From positions 101,879 to 165,878 of the forward strand of contig OZ246394.1 in the NCBI GenBank assembly GCA_965230895.1: DNA of 64,000 nucleotides, read 5' to 3'. Source of the stretch: an uncultured Gammaproteobacteria bacterium (GTDB taxonomy: Bacteria; Patescibacteriota; Microgenomatia; Levybacterales; UBA12049). Under the pieces are notes generated by a model, which searched no databases, was not told the origin of the DNA, and worked only from the letters and a program-made list of their open reading frames with translations. The first letter of the stretch is position 1, and the number at the start of each line of letters is the position of its first letter. Below, piece after piece: positions 3 to 48,065 of the stretch. A program made the translations under genes and the position numbers.

Positions 3-320
3 TTGCTTGAAGAACGGGTATCATCAATTGAATCTATGTTTAGCGCATTTGGTGTGACATATGATGTCCATAAGCTTGTCAAAGATTTTGCAATTGCACA
101 TGGTATGCTTTCATATTCGGGTAAAAATGGGAAACAGCTTGCAACATATGCTGCAGAGCAGGCAAGACTGCAGGCGGATGATACAGACCAACGCATACGT
201 GCATTATATGCAATGCAGGAAATGCGAAAATCTCAAGAAGAAATGTATATAGATAGGGGCATTAATGAAATTGAACTGTATGTTAATAGAAAAGGAGAAG
301 ATTTAATACTTGCAAGTTAG
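3..320 (+). CDS. hypothetical protein, 5'-truncated at window edge (C-terminal 105 aa)
   Basis: Open frame running in from the window start and ending TAG at 318-320. Composition is protein-like, but I recognise no motif. Confidence 0.3.
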   Translation: MLEERVSSIESMFSAFGVTYDVHKLVKDFAIAHGMLSYSGKNGKQLATYAAEQARLQADDTDQRIRALYAMQEMRKSQEEMYIDRGINEIELYVNRKGEDLILAS

Positions 321-344
321 TTGCACTTGTGATAATATTGCATT

Positions 345-788
345 ATGGTTCACATACGAGCAGACCACGATTGTAAAGATGAATTAAACGAAGTAGAACT
401 TCGGGCAACTCCTGCGAGGATTGCTTTAATGCAGCTTCTTGAAACTACGGAAAAACCAGTAGATGTTCAGACAATGATTGATTTTCTTGAAAAGAAGGGG
501 ATTAAAACAGATCCTGCTACAGTATTTCGAATTGTTAATATGTTTACTGAAAAAGGACTCACGAAGCAAATTCAATTGCTCGAAGGAAAAGCTCGATACG
601 AATTAGCTGCTTCTTCTGATCACCATCATTTAGTCTGTTCTAAATGCGGAGACATTCAAGATATTTCTGATTGTAATATTGCTCTTTTGGAAAAAGATAT
701 TCAGACAAAAAAGAAATTTCGAGTAACAAGTCATTCTCTGGAGTTTTTTGGAATTTGCAATGACTGCCAGGAAAGAGGGTTGAAATGA
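345..788 (+). CDS. zur: Fur-family metalloregulator, probably zinc uptake regulator Zur
   Basis: Size (147 aa) and the HHHLVCSKCG...CNDCQ pattern match the Fur-family metal site with paired CxxC. It sits immediately upstream of a znuACB-type operon, overlapping it by 4 bp (ATGA). Confidence 0.7.
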   Translation: MVHIRADHDCKDELNEVELRATPARIALMQLLETTEKPVDVQTMIDFLEKKGIKTDPATVFRIVNMFTEKGLTKQIQLLEGKARYELAASSDHHHLVCSKCGDIQDISDCNIALLEKDIQTKKKFRVTSHSLEFFGICNDCQERGLK

Positions 789-1747
789 AAACTATTCTTC
801 GAGTGGTTCTTCTTATATCAATTATTATATTTGCATGTGTAGGGGTATACGCATTTACTCAAAATTCTTCATTGCAAAAAGACAATAAATTACAGGTAGC
901 TGCATCTTTTTATCCTATGTATTATTTTGCTTCTGAAATAGGTGGAGATCGTGCAACAGTCCGAAATATTACACCTTCAGGTGCTGAACCTCATGATTTC
1001 GAACCTACTGCAAAAGATATAGCTTCTATTGAAGCGAGTAAATTATTAGTTATCAATGGTGCGAACGTAGAAGCTTGGTATCCGAAAATTGAAAATGAAT
1101 TAAAACAGAATAGTGTTCAAATAGTTGTAGCATCAGAAGGGTTAACCACATTAGAGGGTACTGATGAACACGAGCATGAAGGGGAGGAACATAGTGCAGG
1201 TGAGCCAGAGGAGCATATCCAAGATCCGCATGTTTGGCTAAATCCTGTACTTGCTCAAAAAGAGGTTGAGAAAATTCGTGACGGATTTATCGCAGCTGAT
1301 CCTTCAGGAGAAGCTTATTATAACGCGAATACGCAATCATTGCTAGAAAGATTGCAATCTTTAGATAAAAAATATCGTGAAGGACTTGCAAGCTGTGAAC
1401 GTGAAGACATTGTTACTTCGCATACTGCTTTTGCCTACCTTGCAAAAGAGTATGGTTTGCATCAAGTTGCAATTTCAGGACTTTCGACGAGTGCTGAGCC
1501 TTCAACACAAGAATTAGCTGAAGTTGCGCAATTTGCAAGAGAACATCAAGTAAAGTATATCTTTTTTGAAAGTCTTATAAGTCCTAAATTATCCGAGACC
1601 ATTGCAACTGAGATAGGAGCAGAAACTTTGGTACTTGACCCAATTGAAGGAATACCAGATGATGAAATGGCGCAAGGCAAAAATTACTTTACAGTAATGG
1701 AAGATAATTTGACAAACTTGCAAACAGCTTTGGCATGCAGCAACTAA
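785..1747 (+). CDS. znuA: zinc ABC transporter substrate-binding lipoprotein/periplasmic protein ZnuA (cluster A-I SBP)
   Basis: N-terminal signal/TM segment. A His/Glu/Asp-rich flexible loop (DEHEHEGEEHSAGEPEEHIQDPH) is typical of Zn-specific ZnuA/AdcA SBPs. Operon context with ABC ATPase and permease genes. Confidence 0.8.
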   Translation: MKTILRVVLLISIIIFACVGVYAFTQNSSLQKDNKLQVAASFYPMYYFASEIGGDRATVRNITPSGAEPHDFEPTAKDIASIEASKLLVINGANVEAWYPKIENELKQNSVQIVVASEGLTTLEGTDEHEHEGEEHSAGEPEEHIQDPHVWLNPVLAQKEVEKIRDGFIAADPSGEAYYNANTQSLLERLQSLDKKYREGLASCEREDIVTSHTAFAYLAKEYGLHQVAISGLSTSAEPSTQELAEVAQFAREHQVKYIFFESLISPKLSETIATEIGAETLVLDPIEGIPDDEMAQGKNYFTVMEDNLTNLQTALACSN

Positions 1748-2484
1748 ACCACAAAGACACAATCATTGAACTTGAGAATGTCTGTTTCACATATACAAAT
1801 GAAGAAGTTATCAAAGATGTTTCTTTGGTAATACATAAAGGAGATTATCTTGGCATTGTAGGCCCAAATGGTGGTGGAAAAACAACATTACTAAAGCTTA
1901 TGTTAGGTCTTTTACGACCATATGATGGCCGAATTTCTCTCTTTAGTACTGAAATTTCAGTCTTTAAGCAATGGCCTCGAATTGGATATGTCCCTCAAAA
2001 AACTGTGTTCGCAACGAACTTTCCAATAACTGTTGAAGAAGTTGTTGCTATGGGAAGATATGGTAAAAGGGGTCTTTTTCATTTTTCCACAAAAGAAGAT
2101 AAAATAAAAACTCACAAGGCACTGGATCAAGTTGATATGCTTGAGTATAAAGATCGTCAAATAAGTGAACTTTCCGGTGGACAACAACAGCGCGTATTTA
2201 TAGCTCGAGCGCTTGCAACTGAACCTGAGATTATTTTTCTTGACGAGCCAACAGTTGGTGTTGATGTAAAAACCCAAAAGCAGTTTTACCAGTTACTTCG
2301 TAAATTAAACAAAGAGCTTAACCTTACTTTAGTTCTTGTTTCTCACGAATTAGATGTAGTAGCGCATGAGGCAACTGAACTTGTTTATATTAATAGAACA
2401 CTTGAGTATTATGGTGATCCAAATGAATTTCTTAAAGGAGCATATTTCCATGAACTTATAGAAAAAGGAGGGCTCCACCACTAA
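1735..2484 (+). CDS. znuC: zinc ABC transporter ATP-binding protein ZnuC
   Basis: Walker A GPNGGGKTT, ABC signature LSGGQQQR, Walker B IIFLDEPT, H-loop SHEL. Confidence 0.85.
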   Translation: MQQLNHKDTIIELENVCFTYTNEEVIKDVSLVIHKGDYLGIVGPNGGGKTTLLKLMLGLLRPYDGRISLFSTEISVFKQWPRIGYVPQKTVFATNFPITVEEVVAMGRYGKRGLFHFSTKEDKIKTHKALDQVDMLEYKDRQISELSGGQQQRVFIARALATEPEIIFLDEPTVGVDVKTQKQFYQLLRKLNKELNLTLVLVSHELDVVAHEATELVYINRTLEYYGDPNEFLKGAYFHELIEKGGLHH

Positions 2485-3284
2485 TGTTAGATATTTTTCA
2501 ATATGGATTTGTTCTACGGGGTTTCCAAGCAGGAATTATTATTGCCATAATAGCACCGCTTATCGGAATGTTCCTTGTATTACGACGATATTCTTTGATT
2601 GCTGATACTTTGTCTCATGTCTCCCTTGCAGGCGTAGCAGTTGGATTACTTCTGAAAGTTAACCCGCTTATTACAGCAATTATTGCGGCGGTTTTATCGT
2701 CAGTACTTATCGAACGGTTGCGAATGAGTAAAAGAATTTATGGAGAATCAGCACTTTCGATTTTTCTTTCTGGCAGCTTAGCACTTGCTATCATTTTAAT
2801 AAGTTTGGCTGGTGGTTTTGGAGTTGATCTGTTTAGTTATTTGTTTGGAAGTATTGTTACAGTAAGGCAAAATGATGTCTATATTATAGCTGGACTTGGA
2901 ATTGCTGTTATTGGAATAATTATTGCTTTTTATAAGGAGCTTGTTTATACAACATTCGATGAAGAAGCTGCCCAAGTAAGTGGGGTGCCGACTAAGTTTA
3001 TTAATATACTACTAATTGTCCTTGCTGCATTAACTGTTTCTTTATCAATTCCCATTGTAGGGGTCTTACTTATTGCTGCGCTTATCGTCATTCCAGTTGT
3101 TACTGCATTACAGTTTAGGTTGGGATTTCTGCAAACTATAATCGTTGCTGAAGTAATTTCGATTGTTTCTGTTATCGGAGGTATAATTGCTGCGTATTAT
3201 CTCAATGTCTCAACTGGTGGAACAATAGTGCTTTTTACAGTGCTCGTATTTATAACAGCATATATGCTCCAGAGGGTTAAATAA
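2484..3284 (+). CDS. znuB: zinc/manganese ABC transporter permease ZnuB
   Basis: About 8 hydrophobic helices, ABC-3 family permease-like (266 aa). Start overlaps the znuC stop (TAATG). Confidence 0.8.
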   Translation: MLDIFQYGFVLRGFQAGIIIAIIAPLIGMFLVLRRYSLIADTLSHVSLAGVAVGLLLKVNPLITAIIAAVLSSVLIERLRMSKRIYGESALSIFLSGSLALAIILISLAGGFGVDLFSYLFGSIVTVRQNDVYIIAGLGIAVIGIIIAFYKELVYTTFDEEAAQVSGVPTKFINILLIVLAALTVSLSIPIVGVLLIAALIVIPVVTALQFRLGFLQTIIVAEVISIVSVIGGIIAAYYLNVSTGGTIVLFTVLVFITAYMLQRVK

Positions 3285-3300: not shown

Positions 3301-3801
3301 TTAATTACCACTCTCACTGCTAATATTTTCAATATCCTTTTGTACATCGTCAATTGCTGATCCACTTGCACCTGTATCAACAGAATCAATCTCATCTTGG
3401 ACACTTTGCGTAGGTGCTACTGTTGGAACCTCAGTTGGTTGTTGTTCAACAGTAGTTGTTGGAGTTACATTAGTCTGACCCATTGGGTTTTGGGTAAGAA
3501 GTAATGCTGCAGATGCTGCTAAAAGCACAACAAATACAACCGCAGCGACTATAATACCAACTTTATTGCTTTTCTTTGGTGGTGTACTTCCATCTGCTGG
3601 AGGGGTTGTTGGAGCAGCTGTTCCAGGAGCTGGATTTGGCGCAGGCGGTGGAGGAGTGCCTGGTGTTATTGGATTTGCAGGTGAAGGTGTTTGTGGCCCT
3701 GTTTGCGCTGGCGCTGGATTAGGGTTTTGTGTTGGATTTGGATTCTGATTGTTATTTTGATTCTGGTCCATATTATTGTGCTGCTGTCGGCATTGGATCA
3801 T
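3301..3801 (-). CDS. Pro/Thr/Asn-rich low-complexity membrane-anchored protein
   Basis: Single hydrophobic segment (KVGIIVAAVVFVVLLAASAALLL). The N-terminal half is an extreme P/T/N/Q low-complexity stretch. Confidence 0.45.
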   Translation of the reverse strand: MIQCRQQHNNMDQNQNNNQNPNPTQNPNPAPAQTGPQTPSPANPITPGTPPPPAPNPAPGTAAPTTPPADGSTPPKKSNKVGIIVAAVVFVVLLAASAALLLTQNPMGQTNVTPTTTVEQQPTEVPTVAPTQSVQDEIDSVDTGASGSAIDDVQKDIENISSESGN

Positions 3802-4600
3802 TTGTCGCAGTTGGTTGGGATTCGAGCTTCATCAACTCTATTGCAACTTGTTTTACTGCGTCTTTAGATATTTTAACCTTTTCATGAGTCGTTTGTAAAT
3901 CACTTTTTAATTGTCCAAAAACTTCTTTAAAGCTAGGCTTTAAATTTGCTTCATCAGTGACATTTGCGGTATATGTTTTTGCAGCTTGGACGGCGATTGC
4001 TGATTGCGCATTTGTGATTGCCGCTTTTGCGTCTGTAATTGCTTTTTCAACAGCAGCGGTATCTTTGCCCGAAGCTTTTTGTTCATTTGTCCTGTCGATT
4101 AGCTTATTCAAGATTTCTTGTAACTTTGTGATAGCTTCACTCATTTTTGTAGTCTGTGCTTGGTTTGATGCCGCAAGTTTAGTATCTATTGTTTCAGCTG
4201 ACATTTTCTTTTTTTCATCTCTGATTGCTGCAATCTTTGCTTTGAAAGCGTCTTTTTCTGCTTGCATTTGAGATTTCATAGCGTCTCGTTTTGATTGTAC
4301 TTCTTTCATAAATTCAGTTTTTTGTTGTTGTATGTCTACTTTCATCTGATTTCTCATATCTTGAACGTTCTGCTTCATATCCATACGGAATTCCATTGTT
4401 GAGGGCGTGTTTTGGCCTTGCATTGTCCTTGGTTCTCCTTGGAAAGGTCTTGTTTGTTTTTCAGGACTTCCTTCAGGCCGAGCTTCCATAGTATTCATTT
4501 GGGGATTTGGATTATAGTTTTGGATATTCTCTGCATAAACAGGAGAGGCGATAACTCCAAAAAGCGTGAGGATTGCAATAACAAGCAGGTTTCTTTGCAT
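3773..4600 (-). CDS. secreted coiled-coil/helical protein (signal peptide)
   Basis: N-terminal signal peptide (MQRNLLVIAILTLFGVIASPVYA). Lys/Glu/Gln-rich heptad-like sequence. Overlaps the start of the upstream gene by ~29 bp. Confidence 0.5.
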   Translation of the reverse strand: MQRNLLVIAILTLFGVIASPVYAENIQNYNPNPQMNTMEARPEGSPEKQTRPFQGEPRTMQGQNTPSTMEFRMDMKQNVQDMRNQMKVDIQQQKTEFMKEVQSKRDAMKSQMQAEKDAFKAKIAAIRDEKKKMSAETIDTKLAASNQAQTTKMSEAITKLQEILNKLIDRTNEQKASGKDTAAVEKAITDAKAAITNAQSAIAVQAAKTYTANVTDEANLKPSFKEVFGQLKSDLQTTHEKVKISKDAVKQVAIELMKLESQPTATNDPMPTAAQ

Positions 4601-4901: not shown

Positions 4902-6293
4902 ATGTCGATGGTTAAACAGCATAAGATTATCGGAACATTAGCCCCAATTTTTTCTCTTCGCAGTAATCATCAACCACTTCAAGATCATGGAACGTTTGAA
5001 ACAGGATTGTATTTTCTCGATTGGCTAAAAAAGACAAAGCAGAATGCTTGGCAAATACTTCCATTTAATGAAACCCAGCTTGAAAAAAACTCTGCTACAA
5101 AGCACGTACCATCTCCATATAAAGGATATGGTATTGGTCTAGCGCCCAAATATCTTTCTTCACATTTTGCAAAACAAAAACCAGATACACAGACAAAAAA
5201 TAAGTTTATCTCACAACATAAAAATTGGCTTGAAGACTATGCAATATTCTGTTCAATTAGAGATTTCTATGGAACTGATGATTGGCGACTTTGGGAAAAA
5301 CCATTACGTTTAAGAGAAAAAGGTGTATTAACGGAATGGGCAAAAAAACATAAAGCAGAAATTGACTATTATATAGTGCAACAATGGCAACTCCATGAAT
5401 CGTATAGACAACTTCACAATAAGGCAAAAGACTTAGAGATTTCTCTCATTGGTGATATACCATTTTACTTATCAATACAAAGTCCGTTAGTCTGGGCAAA
5501 CCAAAAAGCATTTCAAATAAATAAGAATGGTTCCTTATCGATTGTTTCAGGAATTCCCCAAACAGCAGGAACATATTTTGGGAGGCAAGTCTGGGGACAC
5601 CCTCTTTATAATTGGGAGCATAAAGATGAAGTGATGAAATTGTGGAAGCTTCGCTTGTGGTACAAATCTCTATTATTTGAAAATATCCGTATTGATCATG
5701 CCCGAGCGTTTTTCGATTATGGAGCAATCGATACGAATCATCCAGAGAATGATTCGTATCTTGATGGTCCAGGGGGAGATGTCCTCGAAGAATTAATTGC
5801 TTTTAGTCAACAAAATGCTATGTCAGTTTTTGTAGAAGACAGTGGAGATGGAACAGGTAAGTTACGAGAAAGCATGCATAAATTAGATATACCGGGAATA
5901 AAAATTTATTACTTTGCGATACATCCAAATGGTGAAGATGTAAATGCTAAATATGCTTTTATAAAAGAATACCCAGAGAATTGCGTTGCTTATACGACCA
6001 CACATGATACATTAACTCTTCTTGGGTATATGCAACTTCTTAATGAAGAAAAGAAGAGTAAGCTGGCGAAAGCTGCAGATATTGTATTTGTTTCAGATGA
6101 GCAAATGGCTGAAACATTGAGACATAAGGTTATTCATTCTCCCGCGAAGATAGTCATAATACCTATTCAAGATTGGTTACTCACAACAGATCGGATTAAT
6201 GTCCCGGGGACTGAAAAAGAGATAGGAGATACAAATTGGCGCTTTAAGTTAGCTCAGACAATTGAAGATTTACCCACAAATATTAACTCTTGA
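4902..6293 (+). CDS. malQ: 4-alpha-glucanotransferase (amylomaltase, GH77)
   Basis: GH77 hallmarks: GYGIGL near the N-terminus, LIGDIPFYLS, catalytic-region IRIDHARAF, and the general (beta/alpha)8 amylomaltase layout. 463 aa. Confidence 0.8.
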   Translation: MSMVKQHKIIGTLAPIFSLRSNHQPLQDHGTFETGLYFLDWLKKTKQNAWQILPFNETQLEKNSATKHVPSPYKGYGIGLAPKYLSSHFAKQKPDTQTKNKFISQHKNWLEDYAIFCSIRDFYGTDDWRLWEKPLRLREKGVLTEWAKKHKAEIDYYIVQQWQLHESYRQLHNKAKDLEISLIGDIPFYLSIQSPLVWANQKAFQINKNGSLSIVSGIPQTAGTYFGRQVWGHPLYNWEHKDEVMKLWKLRLWYKSLLFENIRIDHARAFFDYGAIDTNHPENDSYLDGPGGDVLEELIAFSQQNAMSVFVEDSGDGTGKLRESMHKLDIPGIKIYYFAIHPNGEDVNAKYAFIKEYPENCVAYTTTHDTLTLLGYMQLLNEEKKSKLAKAADIVFVSDEQMAETLRHKVIHSPAKIVIIPIQDWLLTTDRINVPGTEKEIGDTNWRFKLAQTIEDLPTNINS

Positions 6294-6329
6294 TACTCCT
6301 GGTACTTTTGGTACACTGGATACTCAAAT

Positions 6330-7673
6330 ATGACACAAAAAGAAGCGCTTGATATGTTAAAACTGGGGCACAATGTCTTCCTCACTGGACCTGCTGGTTC
6401 AGGCAAAACTTTTCTCCTCAATCAATACATACAATATCTAAAAGACAATAAAATTCCTGTAGGGATTACAGCATCTACTGGTATTGCATCAACACATATG
6501 GGTGGGACGACAATTCATAGTTGGTCGGGGATTGGGATACGGGATATTTTGCACGAGAAAGATATTTCTGATTTGATGAAGCGTCAGTATTTGCGCAATC
6601 GATTTAAGAAGACTCGAGTTTTGATCATTGATGAGATTTCAATGTTACATGCACATCGATTAGATTTGGTTGATGCTATTTGTCGAGTTTTCAAACAAAA
6701 CTCAATTCCGTTTGGAGGAATGCAAGTCATTATGTGTGGTGATTTCTTTCAACTACCACCAGTTGTAAAGCGTGAGAAGGGAGAGAATGCAGTACAGATT
6801 TCCGAAGAGTCTCAGTTCGTTACAAACTCAAATATATGGAACAATATGCAGCTTGAAATTTGTTATCTTGAGGAGCAACATCGGCAAGATGATAGAGCTT
6901 TCCTCAGAGTGCTTAATGACATTCGAAATAGCGAAGTGACGGAAATGACATACGAATATTTAGCAGAGCGATTGGATAAAGATACAAATGGATACGCTAA
7001 TCCGACAAGATTATTTACACATAATGCAGATGTCGATGCAATAAATAAAAAACATTTAGAAGAGCTTGATGGTGAAGAACATGAGTATATGATGAATTGG
7101 CGAGGCAGTTTTGGTTTAACTGAAGTTTTGAAAAAAAGCTGTTTGGCACCAGAGACATTAGTTCTGAAAAAAGGTGCACAAGTTATGTTTGTAAAAAATA
7201 ACTATGAAGAAGGGTATGTTAATGGAACTCTTGGAGAAGTGATTAACTTTGATAAAAATGATCTGCCGATTGTCAGAACATTTGATGGATCAGAGATAAC
7301 GGTTCGTCAATCTGATTGGGAAGTGAAAGAAGATGATCGTGAAGTCGCGGCAATTTCACAGCTACCGTTAAGACTCGCTTGGGCGATTACCGTGCACAAA
7401 AGTCAGGGGATGAGCTTGGACGCAGCGGAAATTGATCTGAGTAGATCATTTATCCCAGGTATGGGGTACGTTGCGTTGTCTCGAGTGAGAAGTCTAGCAG
7501 GGCTCAAATTGATGGGACTCAATCAAATGGCATTGCAAGTAAATCAAGCCGTTGCAGAAATGGATCGTGAGTTTTTACAAAGATCGAATGAAGGAATTCT
7601 GTACCTAGCAAAATTAGATAAAGAGAAAAAAGCACAAAAGCAAATAGATTTTCTTCAATACTTAAAAAGCTAA
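6330..7673 (+). CDS. PIF1/RecD-like ATP-dependent DNA helicase (AAA_30 + UvrD_C-like)
   Basis: Walker A LTGPAGSGKTFLL, Walker B VLIIDEISM, and the motif near the C-terminus AITVHKSQGMSLD typical of PIF1/RecD/TraA helicases. Confidence 0.75.
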   Translation: MTQKEALDMLKLGHNVFLTGPAGSGKTFLLNQYIQYLKDNKIPVGITASTGIASTHMGGTTIHSWSGIGIRDILHEKDISDLMKRQYLRNRFKKTRVLIIDEISMLHAHRLDLVDAICRVFKQNSIPFGGMQVIMCGDFFQLPPVVKREKGENAVQISEESQFVTNSNIWNNMQLEICYLEEQHRQDDRAFLRVLNDIRNSEVTEMTYEYLAERLDKDTNGYANPTRLFTHNADVDAINKKHLEELDGEEHEYMMNWRGSFGLTEVLKKSCLAPETLVLKKGAQVMFVKNNYEEGYVNGTLGEVINFDKNDLPIVRTFDGSEITVRQSDWEVKEDDREVAAISQLPLRLAWAITVHKSQGMSLDAAEIDLSRSFIPGMGYVALSRVRSLAGLKLMGLNQMALQVNQAVAEMDREFLQRSNEGILYLAKLDKEKKAQKQIDFLQYLKS

Positions 7674-7785
7674 GTATATTCTTGTCGTATATTTTTTCTT
7701 CTTATTCTTTCTCTGTTCTTACCACGTTTTAGCATTCCTTTATACAGTCGGGTTTACACTTAAATACGTAAAGGAGGTGATGTCT

Positions 7786-7977
7786 ATGACAGATGTAAAA
7801 GCTATTGGGCAAAAGATTAATGGGCAGGTCATACAGTTAAAAGGTGAAATAAACCAACAAGAAGGGAAAGGTGTCAAAGGAGGTTTGCAAAAGATTTCAG
7901 GAAAACTTGATGAAGTGATGGCAGATGCAAAAATTAAATTAGATCAAGCAAAGCAGGAGAGACAATCAAAAAAATGA
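7786..7977 (+). CDS. CsbD-like small stress-response protein
   Basis: 63 aa with a Gly/Lys-rich repeat pattern (KGEINQQEGKGVKGGLQKISGKLDE) resembling the CsbD family. Strong SD AGGAGGTG 8 nt upstream of the ATG at 7786. The ORF track began at GTG 7777; start choice is uncertain by 2-3 codons. Confidence 0.5.
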   Translation: MTDVKAIGQKINGQVIQLKGEINQQEGKGVKGGLQKISGKLDEVMADAKIKLDQAKQERQSKK

Positions 7978-8006
7978 TTATTGTTTGGTTTAAAGACAAT
8001 ATAAAA

Positions 8007-8033
8007 GGGAGCGGCAAAGCCGCTCCCTTTATT
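8007..8033. terminator. bidirectional Rho-independent terminator between convergent genes
   Basis: GGGAGCGGC-AAA-GCCGCTCCC perfect 9-bp stem, followed by TTTATT on the + strand and preceded by TTTTAT read on the - strand. Confidence 0.75.
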
Positions 8034-8053: not shown

Positions 8054-8566
8054 TTATTTATTGCAATTATCTTGATGGTTCCAATTTCCGCCTTTAGCTT
8101 CATGCATCTTTTTCATATGATCCATGTGCCAGTTCTTAAAGTCATTCTTTTCCCAATCTTCGCTTCGATTGTCCCACCAATTTTTGTTATTATCCTTTGA
8201 CCATTTGTAATAGTCATTCCAATCATAGTCCATGTTACGATCATGGTCCCATTGATATCCTTTACTATTCATCCATTCATCGTATCGACCCCAATCGTTT
8301 CCGTATTGGTTCTTGTCATGGTTGTAATAGTTTGTTGCATACCAATTTTCACTACCTTTATGGTCATTCTTGGACCAGTCATTTCTGTCCCAAGCCTTTT
8401 TATCGTCATTCCACTTCCAGTCTGACTTCTGACCATATGAGTGATCGTTGTTTTGCCATGTATTGTGGCCGTTTCCATCATAAGTCGCCATTGCTGAACC
8501 TGTAAGTGACATGCCGAGCATTGCTACTGTTGCACCTGCTGTAATTAGTGTTTTTGTTAACGTCAT
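8054..8566 (-). CDS. secreted Trp/Asn/Asp/Lys/His-rich repeat protein
   Basis: Signal peptide (MTLTKTLITAGATVAMLGMSLTGSAMA). The mature part is W-N-D-K-H-rich with recurring NDW/WDN/DHD/KNW units. Strong SD (AAGGAGGTGAAAAA) before the ATG at 8566; the longer ORF from 8602 is probably not used. Confidence 0.6.
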   Translation of the reverse strand: MTLTKTLITAGATVAMLGMSLTGSAMATYDGNGHNTWQNNDHSYGQKSDWKWNDDKKAWDRNDWSKNDHKGSENWYATNYYNHDKNQYGNDWGRYDEWMNSKGYQWDHDRNMDYDWNDYYKWSKDNNKNWWDNRSEDWEKNDFKNWHMDHMKKMHEAKGGNWNHQDNCNK

Positions 8567-8758
8567 TTTTTCACCTCCTTTCTTAAAAATAATTAATCTC
8601 ATTAAGATTAATAGGACTTGATTATCTGTATTCTATGTAAGGTTTGCTTAAACAAAGTTAATAGACTTGTAATAGAGTTTATTAGAGCTTTATTTTTCAC
8701 TAGTATTTAAGCTTTCTATGCTTTAGGCATTAATATTTGTTATAATCACTAAGCTTTT

Positions 8759-9511
8759 ATGAGTGTTACAAATACTATTCCAAAAGAATTAGAGAAACAA
8801 AAAGAACAAGCACTTTCTCTTATGAAAGATGCAGGCTTTCCAGTTACAACTGAAGTAGGTGTTTTATTAGATAAAGAGTTGCCCTTCATGGGGTATACAA
8901 CAGAACAAAATGGGAAGCCAGTTATTGTTGTTTCTGAGCAAGCGTCGACTGGTGGGATGGCAATTAATTTATTGGTGCATGAATTAAGCCATGTCTATAG
9001 AATTCAATCCGGACACCCCTCACACAATTATTCTCTCATAACAAATATTATGAATTTTGTTGCACAGGGTAGAATAGTCTATTCGTATCAGGAAGAAATT
9101 GTCGGTACTATTATTAATCATTTACAAGACATTTATGCTGATGATATTTCATTTAAAATATTTGCAAAAACTGCGCAACATCAGGATCTCAATGAATTCT
9201 TCCTTACGTGGATTCACGAGCCAAGTACTGCAAAGGATTCTGTCCAACGTTCATGGGAAAATGCGGCAGGCTTTGTAAGCGCGGCTTTTGCCATATCAAA
9301 TCTTGAACGACATAAGGTGCATGATCAAAATGGAATTGTTGCGGATGCAGTCTCACAATACCTTGGAAAAGCAGGAAAGGGAAAAGAAAATTCATTCTAT
9401 TTCTTCAAAGAATTTATGACAAGAATGCCAGAGGAAGTCACTGATAAAGAATATGAAAAGCTACTTATCCATTACCTCAATGAGTTCTTTAAACTTACCA
9501 ACGTTTTATAA
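8759..9511 (+). CDS. putative zinc metallopeptidase (HExxH motif), function unknown
   Basis: LLVHELSHVY contains HExxH in a helical context. No further family assignment possible by eye. Confidence 0.4.
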   Translation: MSVTNTIPKELEKQKEQALSLMKDAGFPVTTEVGVLLDKELPFMGYTTEQNGKPVIVVSEQASTGGMAINLLVHELSHVYRIQSGHPSHNYSLITNIMNFVAQGRIVYSYQEEIVGTIINHLQDIYADDISFKIFAKTAQHQDLNEFFLTWIHEPSTAKDSVQRSWENAAGFVSAAFAISNLERHKVHDQNGIVADAVSQYLGKAGKGKENSFYFFKEFMTRMPEEVTDKEYEKLLIHYLNEFFKLTNVL

Positions 9512-21536: not shown

Positions 21537-23270
21537 ATGGAAGTACTGCTTTTATTTGCTTTTCTTTCCGGTCTTGTCACTATATTTGCCCCATGTATAT
21601 GGCCTCTGCTTCCGATTATTTTGTCCGCAAGTTCTAGCGGTGGACATAGAAAACCGCTAGGGATAACATTAGGAATTGTTATTAGTTTTGCAGTAATAAC
21701 CCTCACCATTTCCTACATCGTAAAAATTATTCCTTTCAATCCAGACGCTCTCAGATATTTTGCTGTTATCATTATTGGAATTCTTGGATTATCATTAGTA
21801 GTTCCAGCATTATCGAAAATATTGGAAGGATCAATGAGTCGCTTGAGTGGGAAGTTAGGTCTTGTTTCAGACCCTAATAAAACTGGATTTTGGGCAGGCT
21901 TTTTAACGGGATTTGCTTTGGGTATCGTTTGGACTCCTTGTGCTGGACCAATACTCGCGACGATAGCAACACTTGCTGCAACTCAAGCAGTTAATTTTAA
22001 TGTTGTCCTTGTAACAATTGTCTATGTCATTGGTGTCGGTATCCCATTATTCATTTTTGCAACTGCTGGGAGCGCTCTCTTTGCCCGAAGTCGCTTTCTC
22101 TCAAAATATACGGGGAGAATACAGCAAGTCTTTGGAGTTATTATGATTTTGACAGCAGTTGCTATCGCAACAGGCTATGATAAGACTTTGCAAGTGCAGC
22201 TCCTTAACACGTTTCCTTCCTATGGAAAATTCTTAACAAATTTAGAAAATAATGAAGCAGTTACTAAACAACTTAATTCTCTGAAAGGGAATGAAAATTC
22301 GCAATCAAATAATCCTATTCAAATAGTTGGTGAAAGTGGAGATCCTGCACCAGAATTTACAGGGATTACAAAATGGATAAATACAGATAATAAACAATTA
22401 ACAATGAATGATTTGAGGGGGAAAGTTGTCCTTATAGATTTCTGGACATATACCTGTATTACCTGTATTCGAACATTACCGTATGTTACGGGGTGGTACG
22501 AGAAGTATAAGGACGATGGATTCGTCGTCGTTGGTGTGCATGCTCCTGAGTTTGAATTCGAAAAGAATACAGATAATGTCCTTGATGCTATCAAGCGCTA
22601 TAAAATAAATTATCCAGTTGCACAAGATAATAATTTTGATACATGGAAAGCCTACAATAATCAATATTGGCCAGCTAAATATCTCATTGATGCCAATGGA
22701 AGAATACGCTACTCTCATTTTGGTGAAGGTGACTATGAAAAAACAGAACAGGCAATTCAACAGTTACTACGGGAGAATGGCAAAAAGGTAGATACAAGCA
22801 TTGATAAAGCCGATGAATCAGTCTATTCAAATCAAATGTCTCCTGAAACATATTTCGGTTCTGACAGAATGCAATATTTGGTGACACAAGGAAGAGTTGA
22901 TAATGGCGTACAAACATTTACAATTCAAAAAACACTTCCAAATAATAGATTCTCATTTGGTGGACAGTGGAATATTACAGATCAGTATGCCGAGACACAA
23001 GCAATTTCTGCTTTAGCGTATAAATTTACTGCAAAGAAAGTTTTTATCGTTCTTAAAAAAGGTACTTCTGTTAATGGAACTATTCGTGTTCTCGTGGATG
23101 GCAAAGTTGTAGACCAAAGTATTGCTGGCGCTGATGTCAAAAACGGGATTGTCTCAGTTGAAAAGGACAGACTTTATGAGCTCGTCAATCTTCAAGAGAT
23201 AGGGACTCACTTGCTTGAGTTACAATTTATGAAACCGGGAATTCAAGTCTATACTTTTACTTTCGGCTAA
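21537..23270 (+). CDS. DsbD/CcdA-type transmembrane thiol-disulfide transporter fused to a thioredoxin-like (TlpA/redoxin) domain and a C-terminal beta domain
   Basis: Six TM helices with Cys in TM1 (FAPCIWPLLP) and TM4 (WTPCAGPILA). Redoxin domain with WTYTCITC (CxxC). A further ~170 aa of unknown function. Confidence 0.7.
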   Translation: MEVLLLFAFLSGLVTIFAPCIWPLLPIILSASSSGGHRKPLGITLGIVISFAVITLTISYIVKIIPFNPDALRYFAVIIIGILGLSLVVPALSKILEGSMSRLSGKLGLVSDPNKTGFWAGFLTGFALGIVWTPCAGPILATIATLAATQAVNFNVVLVTIVYVIGVGIPLFIFATAGSALFARSRFLSKYTGRIQQVFGVIMILTAVAIATGYDKTLQVQLLNTFPSYGKFLTNLENNEAVTKQLNSLKGNENSQSNNPIQIVGESGDPAPEFTGITKWINTDNKQLTMNDLRGKVVLIDFWTYTCITCIRTLPYVTGWYEKYKDDGFVVVGVHAPEFEFEKNTDNVLDAIKRYKINYPVAQDNNFDTWKAYNNQYWPAKYLIDANGRIRYSHFGEGDYEKTEQAIQQLLRENGKKVDTSIDKADESVYSNQMSPETYFGSDRMQYLVTQGRVDNGVQTFTIQKTLPNNRFSFGGQWNITDQYAETQAISALAYKFTAKKVFIVLKKGTSVNGTIRVLVDGKVVDQSIAGADVKNGIVSVEKDRLYELVNLQEIGTHLLELQFMKPGIQVYTFTFG

Positions 23271-46853: not shown

Positions 46854-48065
46854 TTATTTAAGAATATTTATTACCTCATCCAGAGTAGCTTGCTTCTGTT
46901 CTCGCGTTTGCATGTTTTTGAAGTTAAGGATATTCTTTTCTGCTTCTTCAGGACCTATGACGATAATATAAGGAATATTCTTTTGTAAGGCGTATTTTAA
47001 TTGTTTTTCCAAAGGATTTTTTTCTTTGATTTCCCCGAGATAGACTTCAGCATTGATATGATTTCGACGCAATTGTGCTGTTACTTCAATTGATTTTGTT
47101 TTGAGTTCATCCGAAAAAATAGTAGTGAGAACTTTGGCTTTTGCTTGCTCAACTTCCTCAGGGAAGAGGTTTAATTCTGTCATTGCTTCAATAATCCGAT
47201 CAAATCCAAATGCTACTCCTACTGCTGGAACTTGCTGGCCAGTAAATGATCCGAGGAGTTTATCATATCTTCCGCCTCCCGCAACAGATCCAGAAGCATA
47301 TGATGGAATTTCAACTTCAACGATCATGCCGGTATAATAATCTAAACCTCGAGCAAGGGTTGGCTCAAAGAAAATATTGTTCTCATTTACTCCGAGTAAT
47401 TTTGCATTATCAATAATTTCCATAGTGCTTTCTGTCATTGTGGCATTCTGTATTAATTCCAGATCCTTCCGTGCAAAACCTTTTTCTTCCAATTCCTTAA
47501 CAACGCCTTCAACTCCAACTTTCTTTAACTTATCAATTGAGATAATTGCATCAATAGGTAAATTACCAAAAACACTTCGGTCGTTGATAAGAATTCGATA
47601 ATCTTTAAAGCCGAGTGTTTCAAGTGATTGAGCGATCACCGCAATGATTTCTGAATCAACAGTAAGTGAGGTTGCGCCTACAGTATCGATATCGCATTGG
47701 AGAAATTCTCGATATCGGCCCTTTTGAGGTTTGTCTGCGCGCCATACAGGTTGAATTTGATATCGTTTGAACGGAGTAGGGAATTCGTCCTGATATTGTG
47801 CTACCACGCGTGCCAATGGAACGGTCTGATCATATCGCATTGCAACCCGACGTTTCCCGTTATCTTCAAAACGATACATTAACTTTTCGCCTTCCTCGCC
47901 ATATTTACCAGCAAGAACTTCTTCGTACTCGAGAGTAGGGGTTTCTAATGGTTCAAAACCAAATGATTCAAAAATGCGTCTTAGCTTATCAATAACATAT
48001 TGACGTTTTTTTGCTTCTTGCGGTAAGAAGTCTCGGAAACCTTTTAATGTTTGTGTCTTTATCAT
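46854..48065 (-). CDS. hisS: histidyl-tRNA synthetase
   Basis: Class II aaRS motif 1 region (FRDFLPQEA...). HisRS-specific GGGRYDKL. C-terminal anticodon-binding domain. 403 aa. Confidence 0.85.
   Translation of the reverse strand: MIKTQTLKGFRDFLPQEAKKRQYVIDKLRRIFESFGFEPLETPTLEYEEVLAGKYGEEGEKLMYRFEDNGKRRVAMRYDQTVPLARVVAQYQDEFPTPFKRYQIQPVWRADKPQKGRYREFLQCDIDTVGATSLTVDSEIIAVIAQSLETLGFKDYRILINDRSVFGNLPIDAIISIDKLKKVGVEGVVKELEEKGFARKDLELIQNATMTESTMEIIDNAKLLGVNENNIFFEPTLARGLDYYTGMIVEVEIPSYASGSVAGGGRYDKLLGSFTGQQVPAVGVAFGFDRIIEAMTELNLFPEEVEQAKAKVLTTIFSDELKTKSIEVTAQLRRNHINAEVYLGEIKEKNPLEKQLKYALQKNIPYIIVIGPEEAEKNILNFKNMQTREQKQATLDEVINILK

Follow-up and report, generated by a model that had tools for sequence, protein, structure and literature searches.

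A small exported protein with a Trp-rich, predicted helical domain from a probable Patescibacteria bacterium

What kind of protein is encoded by a gene whose mature product contains not a single Leu, Ile, Val or Pro? This question is raised by the coding sequence at positions 8054..8566, on the minus strand, of a 64,000-nucleotide stretch of contig OZ246394.1; in the following, the window denotes this whole stretch. An earlier note based on the sequence alone (the sequence-only reading) had described the open reading frame (ORF) as a secreted repeat protein rich in Trp, Asn, Asp, His and Lys. The ORF is indeed present, with an ATG start at 8566-8564, 170 amino acids (aa) and a stop codon at 8054-8056, and the peptide strings quoted in that reading occur in its translation. 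The analysis presented here confirms a genuine, conserved gene for a putatively exported protein, but not the repeats. We tentatively propose, with a probability of roughly one in three, that the product is an exported binding module that acts at the cell surface or on the surface of a partner or host.

A syntenic orthologue was found in one genome of a 185,579-species collection (L001, contig CAZDOJ010000001.1), where the gene order is GH77, PIF1 helicase, a small CsbD-like gene, the orthologue, DUF5781 and TrhO. The two proteins share 84% identity overall, 81% in the spacer and 86% in the helical domain described below, and their signal peptides are 100% identical. Among the 74 substitutions, 17, 14 and 43 fall on codon positions 1, 2 and 3, respectively (58% third), and a dS of 0.83 together with a dN of 0.091 gives a dN/dS of 0.11. 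Seven neighbour genes compared between the window and L001 show 76-94% identity and omega values of 0.015-0.09; HisS is 72% identical between the window and the L001 genome. The gene is under purifying selection and constrained like its housekeeping neighbours.

These data bear on the possibility that the ORF is non-functional, i.e. that it arose by chance, is an artefact of the antisense strand or represents a gene in decay, and that its composition merely reflects a codon-position bias. Such a bias exists, since the second codon position on the coding strand is 66% A and 4% T; in addition, hydrophobic ORFs lie on the opposite strand (8197-8505, 102 aa), and the family is extremely rare. However, the low dN/dS and the excess of third-position substitutions speak against this explanation, as do the indels between homologues, which keep the frame, and the 30 invariant columns that are retained at 39-51% identity. 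Leader, Shine-Dalgarno (SD) site and terminator are conserved as well, whereas the 102-aa antisense ORF is not retained at the L001 locus. An antisense-gene reading was rejected on the same grounds. Conservation thus effectively refutes the artefact explanation, and the claim of the sequence-only reading that the gene is real, for which it had named absence of conservation in relatives as the decisive objection, holds up. Because SD site, signal peptide and terminator occur together with a dN/dS of 0.11 against L001, we regard the ORF as a genuine gene.

The SD site, AAAGGAGGTGA (8571..8581, minus strand), has its GGAGG core at 8574-8578, 7 nucleotides (nt) upstream of the ATG, and is also kept in L001 and in L005, a locus of a related genome; the gene has a strong SD site of its own, as had been noted. 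Public gene calls use an in-frame ATG at 8602 instead (8054-8602, minus strand), and the resulting 182-aa version is on record in eight contigs from runs SRR14271353-73. The 12 added residues, which end in KKGGEK, are the translated SD region. Since KGGE, the translation of an SD site, directly precedes the Met in every homologue, the ATG at 8566 is taken as the true start and the deposited 182-aa protein is probably mis-started. At the other end, a 12-bp GC-rich hairpin (8004..8030) lies between the convergent stop codons of this gene and of a 64-aa CsbD-like gene, 23 nt beyond the former and 26 nt beyond the latter. Its folding energies on the two strands are -22.1 and -22.6 kcal/mol (z = -6.4 and -6.3), and none of 200 shuffles folds as well. 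This agrees with the shared bidirectional terminator claimed earlier, and the hairpin is probably an intrinsic terminator for both genes. A perfect 8-bp inverted repeat, ATTAATCT-N5-AGATTAAT (8592..8612), is located 11-31 nt upstream of the SD site, within the promoter region or the 5' leader. An operator function is conceivable but doubtful, because the palindrome is not kept in L001 or L005; nor does it show similarity to the DNA that precedes the Fur-family gene of the window.

The first 27 residues (8486..8566, minus strand) form a putative signal peptide. The leader MTLTKTLITAGATVAMLGMSLTGSAMA, followed by TYDG, has the n/h/c layout of Sec substrates, with a positive n-region (MTLTK), a 17-aa hydrophobic h-region (TLITAGATVAMLGMSLTG) and an A-x-A site within SAMA; cleavage is predicted between A27 and T28. 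The signal peptide and its cleavage site were assigned by rule, without SignalP or another trained predictor. The A-x-A site is kept in all six proteins of the family, in agreement with the signal peptide proposed by the sequence-only reading. The leader contains neither a lipobox Cys nor a twin-Arg motif, and an anchor of the lipid, transmembrane or sortase type was not recognised in the mature protein. Since the latter contains zero Leu, Ile, Val and Pro and only one Phe, it cannot span a membrane. By these rules the protein has the features of a signal peptidase I substrate with a soluble product, and it is predicted to be exported via Sec and freed from its leader by that enzyme.

The composition of the mature part (143 aa, about 18 kDa) had been called very unusual, and the figures bear this out: Asn 17.5%, Asp 15.4%, Lys 11.9%, Trp 11.2%, Tyr 7.7%, Gly 6.3% and His 6.3%. 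Leu, Ile, Val and Pro add up to zero, compared with 27.4% in 64 long ORFs of the window (P for 0 of 143 about 1e-20). In the same ORFs Trp accounts for 0.9% (P for at least 16 Trp in 143 about 3e-13), and every other 143-aa stretch of the window has at most 6.3% Trp and at least 12.6% Leu, Ile, Val and Pro. The mature protein has a calculated isoelectric point of 5.8, a grand average of hydropathy (GRAVY) of -2.32 and a net charge of about -6.

The short recurring units that had suggested a repeat protein, in contrast, can be attributed to this composition. Seven 3-mers (NDW, KNW, WND etc.) are repeated, compared with 8.1 +/- 2.7 in composition-preserving shuffles, the recurrence of 2-mers and 4-mers is at or under the shuffle expectation, and Tandem Repeats Finder reported 0 arrays in the DNA of the gene. 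A tandem-repeat reading was therefore rejected; the protein is not a repeat protein. There is likewise no variable repeat number among orthologues, as had been envisaged, since only the length of a low-complexity spacer varies (31-71 aa in five members). A weak, shifted self-similarity between the predicted helices, with the pattern DW..ND(Y/F).K.W, gives a self-alignment score of 144 as opposed to 104 +/- 13, and is equalled by about 0.5% of shuffles.

The charge and the selection pattern also bear on the idea of a secreted interference or signalling factor, which could be a toxin resembling bacteriocins or a pro-peptide from which a small active peptide is released. The protein is small, Sec-exported by prediction and confined to a narrow lineage, and as a matter of general knowledge Trp- and Lys-rich peptides are common among antimicrobials. 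Yet the mature protein is acidic and not a cationic amphipath, it has no double-Gly or other processing site, and the adjacent genes encode neither an immunity protein nor modification enzymes nor a dedicated ABC exporter or peptidase. Moreover, purifying selection acts over the whole length with an omega like that of housekeeping neighbours, which is unlike an arms-race toxin. We consider a toxin or signal very improbable.

The family considered here comprises the window protein, its L001 orthologue and the proteins P0001-P0003, i.e. five full members, plus P0004. An exhaustive phmmer search of 1.84e9 cluster representatives gave only four matches: P0001 (190 aa as called, E = 1e-19), P0002 (173 aa, E = 2e-19), P0003 (143 aa, E = 5e-10) and P0004 (252 aa, E = 9e-5). 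All of them share the leader and the A-x-A site. P0002 comes from forest soil and is the only member with a named sample (record JX_forest). A word-indexed homology search with the single sequence retrieved P0001 only, and with a five-sequence profile P0001 and P0003 but nothing further. No match was obtained in Pfam (E <= 1), NCBIfam (E <= 1) or PHROGs (E <= 0.1); the Pfam and NCBIfam searches, at the same threshold, likewise gave no match to models of carbohydrate or cell-wall binding (carbohydrate-binding modules, LysM, SLH, CW_binding_1, GW, WxL). A search of the PDB sequences with the family profile gave a single chance match (E = 3.9). Scans of metagenome contigs with the family profile and of viral contigs for the family found none, and a degenerate DNA pattern for the leader, itself too degenerate, matched at least 120 stretches of metagenome contigs; among those listed, none encodes a relative by tblastn. 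In the literature searched, nothing relevant was found on tryptophan-rich proteins in Saccharibacteria/Patescibacteria or on fasciclin in Saccharibacteria. By sequence comparison, the protein thus belongs to no described family and lacks an informative fold match. In general kind it can be placed among small exported proteins that are specific to a lineage and combine a disordered stalk with a small head.

Behind the leader, three segments can be distinguished. Residues 28-89 (8300..8485, minus strand) comprise the short conserved N-terminal segment TYDGNGHNTWQNNDHSY and, after it, a polar and aromatic low-complexity spacer that is predicted to be disordered. Residues 90-159 (8090..8299, minus strand) constitute a conserved Trp-rich domain with predicted helices at about 92-102, 112-126, 130-133 (a short turn) and 136-157. 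A variable tail, residues 160-170 (8057..8089, minus strand), is again predicted to be disordered and carries a conserved acidic/amide-Cys motif, QDNC-NK. In the alignment of the five full members, the leader and the first mature residues (the cleavage-site Ala followed by TYDGN.HN.WQ) are highly conserved. The spacer, 31-71 residues long, can be aligned only between close relatives; it is polar and nearly aliphatic-free, with 0-11% Trp. The block corresponding to residues 90-159, on the other hand, contains 8-13% Trp and 0-4% Leu, Ile, Val and Pro in all members, and W98, G103, W106, D107, R110, M112, D115, W116, D118, W122, N127, W130, E139, F143, W146 and H150 are invariant. The tails end in QDNC-NK, QENC-DK, PDDC-HY, SENC-NH and QNHC-H; in the window protein this Cys, C168, is the sole Cys of the mature chain.

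AlphaFold2 modelling, for which the alignment input was four sequences, reflects this division. In the full-length model the predicted local distance difference test (pLDDT) score is 29-39 at residues 1-89 and 79-91 at residues 90-159. The domain-only model has a predicted template modelling (pTM) score of 0.69 and core pLDDT values of 83-94, with mean pLDDT values of 70-78 over five models. Both the full-length and the domain-only models contain helices only, so that the beta-solenoid or Trp-zipper considered in the sequence-only reading finds no counterpart: the conserved half is predicted to be all-helical and neither model has strands. Within each predicted helix the invariant residues stand at i, i+3/4 and i+7. 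The 3-4 spacing is seen in W92-Y95-W98/M99, in M112-W116-Y119-W122/S123 and in E139-F143-W146-H150, and heptad-like positions are taken by W98, W106, M112, W116, W122, W130, F143 and W146 together with the conservatively replaced Y95, M99 and Y119. The heptad-spaced invariant Trp, Phe and Met residues would fit an aromatic core. As there are almost no aliphatic residues, the core of the domain, if folded, could be built only from Trp, Tyr, Phe and Met.

The predicted order of helices resembles that of the FF domain, a bundle of the alpha1-alpha2-3(10)-alpha3 type that occurs in splicing and transcription factors of eukaryotes. The resemblance is topological only. The protein shares 6-13% identity with FF domains, Pfam gives no FF match, and similarity that is significant in structure or sequence, as expected of a member, was not observed. 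FF domains also differ in being intracellular and eukaryotic and in having an ordinary aliphatic core.

The long disordered segment is relevant to another possibility, namely that the protein is an extracellular stress protectant of the hydrophilin type, which would shield the envelope during desiccation or osmotic stress, maybe together with the adjacent CsbD-like protein. The hydrophilin criteria of Garay-Arroyo et al. (2000) are reportedly a Gly content above 6% and high hydrophilicity. With 6.3% Gly and a GRAVY of -2.32 the protein formally satisfies both, but this compositional definition says nothing about function. Disorder is predicted for over half of the chain, a feature shared with hydrophilins and late embryogenesis abundant (LEA)-like proteins, a weakly CsbD-like gene is adjacent in four of five loci, albeit in two arrangements, and the only member with a named sample is from forest soil. 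On the other hand, conservation is highest in a domain that is confidently predicted to be folded and has invariant Trp residues, and a Trp content of 11% is atypical for hydrophilins and LEA proteins, from which the protein also differs in being exported and in matching none of the models for LEA proteins, dehydrins or CsbD. The neighbour's own match to CsbD falls below the Pfam threshold, its gene is absent next to P0001, and its convergent orientation precludes co-transcription. A protectant role is thus quite unlikely, although less so than a toxin.

The invariant H150 and C-terminal Cys could also belong to an extracytoplasmic protein that binds or buffers metal ions (Zn, Ni or Cu), whose His, Asp and Cys residues and a Met/His cluster would capture ions outside the membrane in the manner of SilE/PcoE or ZinT. 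Small periplasmic metal sponges and chaperones of these types are disordered until metal binds. His makes up 6.3% of the mature protein, compared with a background of 1.7%, and 3-11% of the homologues; Asp reaches 15%. The stretch WHMDHMKKMHE (146-156) holds HxxH, MxxM and HxxxxH spacings, and a Fur-family regulator and ZnuABC are encoded 4.8-8 kb from the gene. However, His positions other than H150 are not conserved, and the cluster HMDHMKKMH is lost in P0001-P0003 and even in the 84%-identical orthologue (HADHMKKW). The conserved repeated ligand motifs of SilE/PcoE-like proteins (HxxM/MxxH, HxH, CxxC) are not found in the family. The znu operon is not adjacent but separated by unrelated genes, and no Fur/Zur-like box was recognised by inspection upstream of the gene. 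SilE and PcoE are small Sec-exported proteins as well, disordered over much of their length and with helical segments that contain His and Met, for which HMDHMKKMH would be the counterpart, but this motif is not conserved in the family, no Pfam or NCBIfam model links the two, and SilE and PcoE have neither the Trp dominance nor the lack of aliphatic residues. Metal binding, one of the functions suggested in the sequence-only reading, would leave the conserved Trp residues and the absence of aliphatics unexplained. It is the likeliest of the rival explanations, but we still regard it as improbable.

For the proposed binding module, the most informative relative is P0004. Its gene (6001-6759, plus strand, in both L005 and L006) encodes a leader, a spacer and a fasciclin domain (FAS1, PF02469), and stands in a related genome in the order DUF5781, P0004 gene, 62-aa gene, PIF1 and GH77, with TrhO also nearby. 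P0004 and the window protein are homologous in the leader and in the first ~17 mature residues (hhalign probability 98%, residues 1-44). Its spacer is rich in Trp, Asp, Asn and His, aliphatic-free (0% Leu, Ile, Val and Pro) and ends in a single Cys (DNEC), after which FAS1 begins. Thus, P0004 has the same leader and N-terminal segment and a similar spacer and neighbours, but carries FAS1 in place of the Trp-rich helical domain, of which it shows nothing beyond a loose likeness in composition. The window protein, conversely, has no Pfam match to FAS1 at E <= 1. FAS1 domains are extracellular adhesion or surface modules. Since P0004 joins the same leader and N-terminal segment to FAS1 in the same slot, the comparison suggests that leader and spacer are a reusable cassette for export and display, and that the helical domain is one of at least two alternative heads. 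It looks like the C-terminal head has been swapped at a fixed locus. For the cell-surface adhesion that the sequence-only reading had considered, the fusion is a single, indirect clue.

The likely host adds to this picture. The HisS of the window (46854-48065, minus strand) has its nearest named relatives, 62-66% identical, in Candidatus Levybacteria, Saccharimonadales and a "Patescibacteria group", together with two other metagenome-assembled genome (MAG) labels, and an identical protein is encoded on a 1.61-Mb NCBI contig. Many window ORFs lack a Pfam family, the SD sites are strong, and a scan of approximately 50 window ORFs revealed no outer-membrane markers. The host is therefore probably an uncultured soil bacterium of the Patescibacteria (Candidate Phyla Radiation, CPR) with a single membrane. 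The HisS of the L001 MAG has its nearest named relatives in these groups as well, so that the public label of that MAG, "uncultured Gammaproteobacteria", is probably wrong. In a single-membrane host a cleaved Sec substrate would reach the wall zone or the medium.

We therefore favour, though weakly, the exported binding module named at the outset. Export, architecture and constraint follow from sequence analysis and prediction, whereas binding is suggested by the FAS1 relative, by the aromatic, acid and amide chemistry and by the lifestyle of its likely host. According to this model, the protein would act beyond the cytoplasmic membrane and consist of a small folded head carried by a flexible, hydrophilic stalk: a conserved leader with ~17 N-terminal residues, a disordered spacer rich in Asn, Asp, Lys, His, Tyr and Trp, a compact helical domain of ~70 residues, and a short tail with a single conserved Cys. 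The ligand of the head might be part of the envelope of the cell itself or belong to the surface of a partner or host, with contacts made by the conserved polar residues of the helices (D107, R110, D115, D118, N127, E139 and H150) and by aromatic, acid and amide side chains. The C-terminal Cys would be free to form a disulfide with a partner or a second copy. Leader and N-terminal segment would serve as the export cassette that in a related genome is fused to the FAS1 adhesion domain.

Several points weigh against this interpretation. The AlphaFold2 fold is based on a very shallow alignment of four sequences, and Asn, Asp, Gly and Trp are poor helix formers. For the predicted helices, hydrophobic moments do not exceed those of shuffles, because the aromatic residues are spread over several helix faces. 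Cleavage of the signal peptide was judged by rule, and past residue 44 the link to P0004 is positional and compositional, not homologous. No wall-anchoring or carbohydrate-binding module is recognisable, so that the protein may simply diffuse away. Finally, sequence searches of Pfam, NCBIfam, PHROGs and PDB gave no informative match that would point to a function. The probability that falls outside the explanations discussed here remains for other functions.

A more specific version of the binding-module reading holds that residues 90-159 are a stable helical domain with a core solely of Trp, Tyr, Phe and Met, which a soil clade of Patescibacteria would export as a head for adhesion or ligand binding, directed at the own wall or the surface of a host cell; the leader cassette and a disordered, cation-pi-rich stalk (Lys/Trp/Tyr/Asn/Asp) would precede this head. 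This is speculative, and we would expect it to be wrong rather than right.

The genes around the locus recur with the family. DUF5781, a PIF1-like helicase and the CsbD-like gene accompany it in the window, L001, L003 and L005/L006. The DUF5781 protein of the window (8759..9511, plus strand) is the divergent neighbour; it has a conserved HELSH (HExxH) and no signal peptide, and its counterparts lie at 5047-5799 (minus strand) in L001 and at 5-745 (minus strand) in L003. It adjoins the family gene in four of the five loci with listed neighbours (window, L001, L003 and L005/L006) and is absent in L002; the listing for the contig of P0003, which stands in a different context, has no DUF5781. The motif HELSHVYR.Q.GHPSH, i.e. 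HExxH plus a further His pair, is strictly conserved, and the protein may be an uncharacterised cytoplasmic zinc metallopeptidase. No mention of DUF5781 was found in the literature searched. The convergent neighbour (7783..7977, plus strand) encodes the 64-aa protein rich in Lys, Gly and Gln. Its designation as CsbD-like by the sequence-only reading is not confirmed: the match to Pfam CsbD is weak (E = 0.027), and the label stays tentative as the score of 14.8 bits is below the cut-off of 40. A small gene of this kind adjoins the family gene in four of five loci, in two different arrangements; that of L003, called as 85 aa, is situated on the opposite side, while near P0001 only PIF1 is found and no CsbD-like gene is adjacent.

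Other genes of the window also encode envelope or extracytoplasmic proteins. At 3773-4600 (minus strand) lies the gene for a 275-aa protein with a signal peptide (SPVYA before EN) and a Gln/Met/Lys/Ala-rich, probably helical body; it is overlapped by the gene at 3301-3801 (minus strand) for a 166-aa Pro/Asn/Thr-rich envelope protein with one transmembrane segment. Neither protein has a Pfam or NCBIfam match. The region 345-3284 (plus strand) holds the Fur-family regulator gene, which overlaps the start of the operon for a ZnuA/ZnuC/ZnuB-type ABC importer; in the ZnuA homologue, a loop rich in His and Glu (DEHEHEGEEH) is accompanied by a membrane anchor or atypical lipobox (IIFAC) at the N-terminus. 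Further away, 21537-23270 (plus strand) encodes a 577-aa fusion of DsbD-type transmembrane, redoxin/AhpC-TSA and Thioredoxin_10 domains, an extracytoplasmic thiol-reducing system that could be relevant to the lone conserved Cys of the exported protein.

Three features set the family apart, namely the aliphatic-free chemistry of its aromatic-core domain, the apparent swapping of heads at a fixed locus and its rarity, with four clusters in 1.84 billion. If none of them holds, the protein is an ordinary lineage-specific hypothetical protein with a biased composition. If the fold is real, it would provide a rare natural protein core without aliphatic residues, which would be of interest for protein folding and design. 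CPR bacteria depend on contact with other cells, and the function of only few of their exported proteins is known. An aliphatic-free surface head would, if true, be new both in the chemistry of its fold and as a module by which episymbiotic bacteria attach to surfaces, and a swappable cassette-plus-head arrangement at one locus could be a handle on surface variation in these bacteria.

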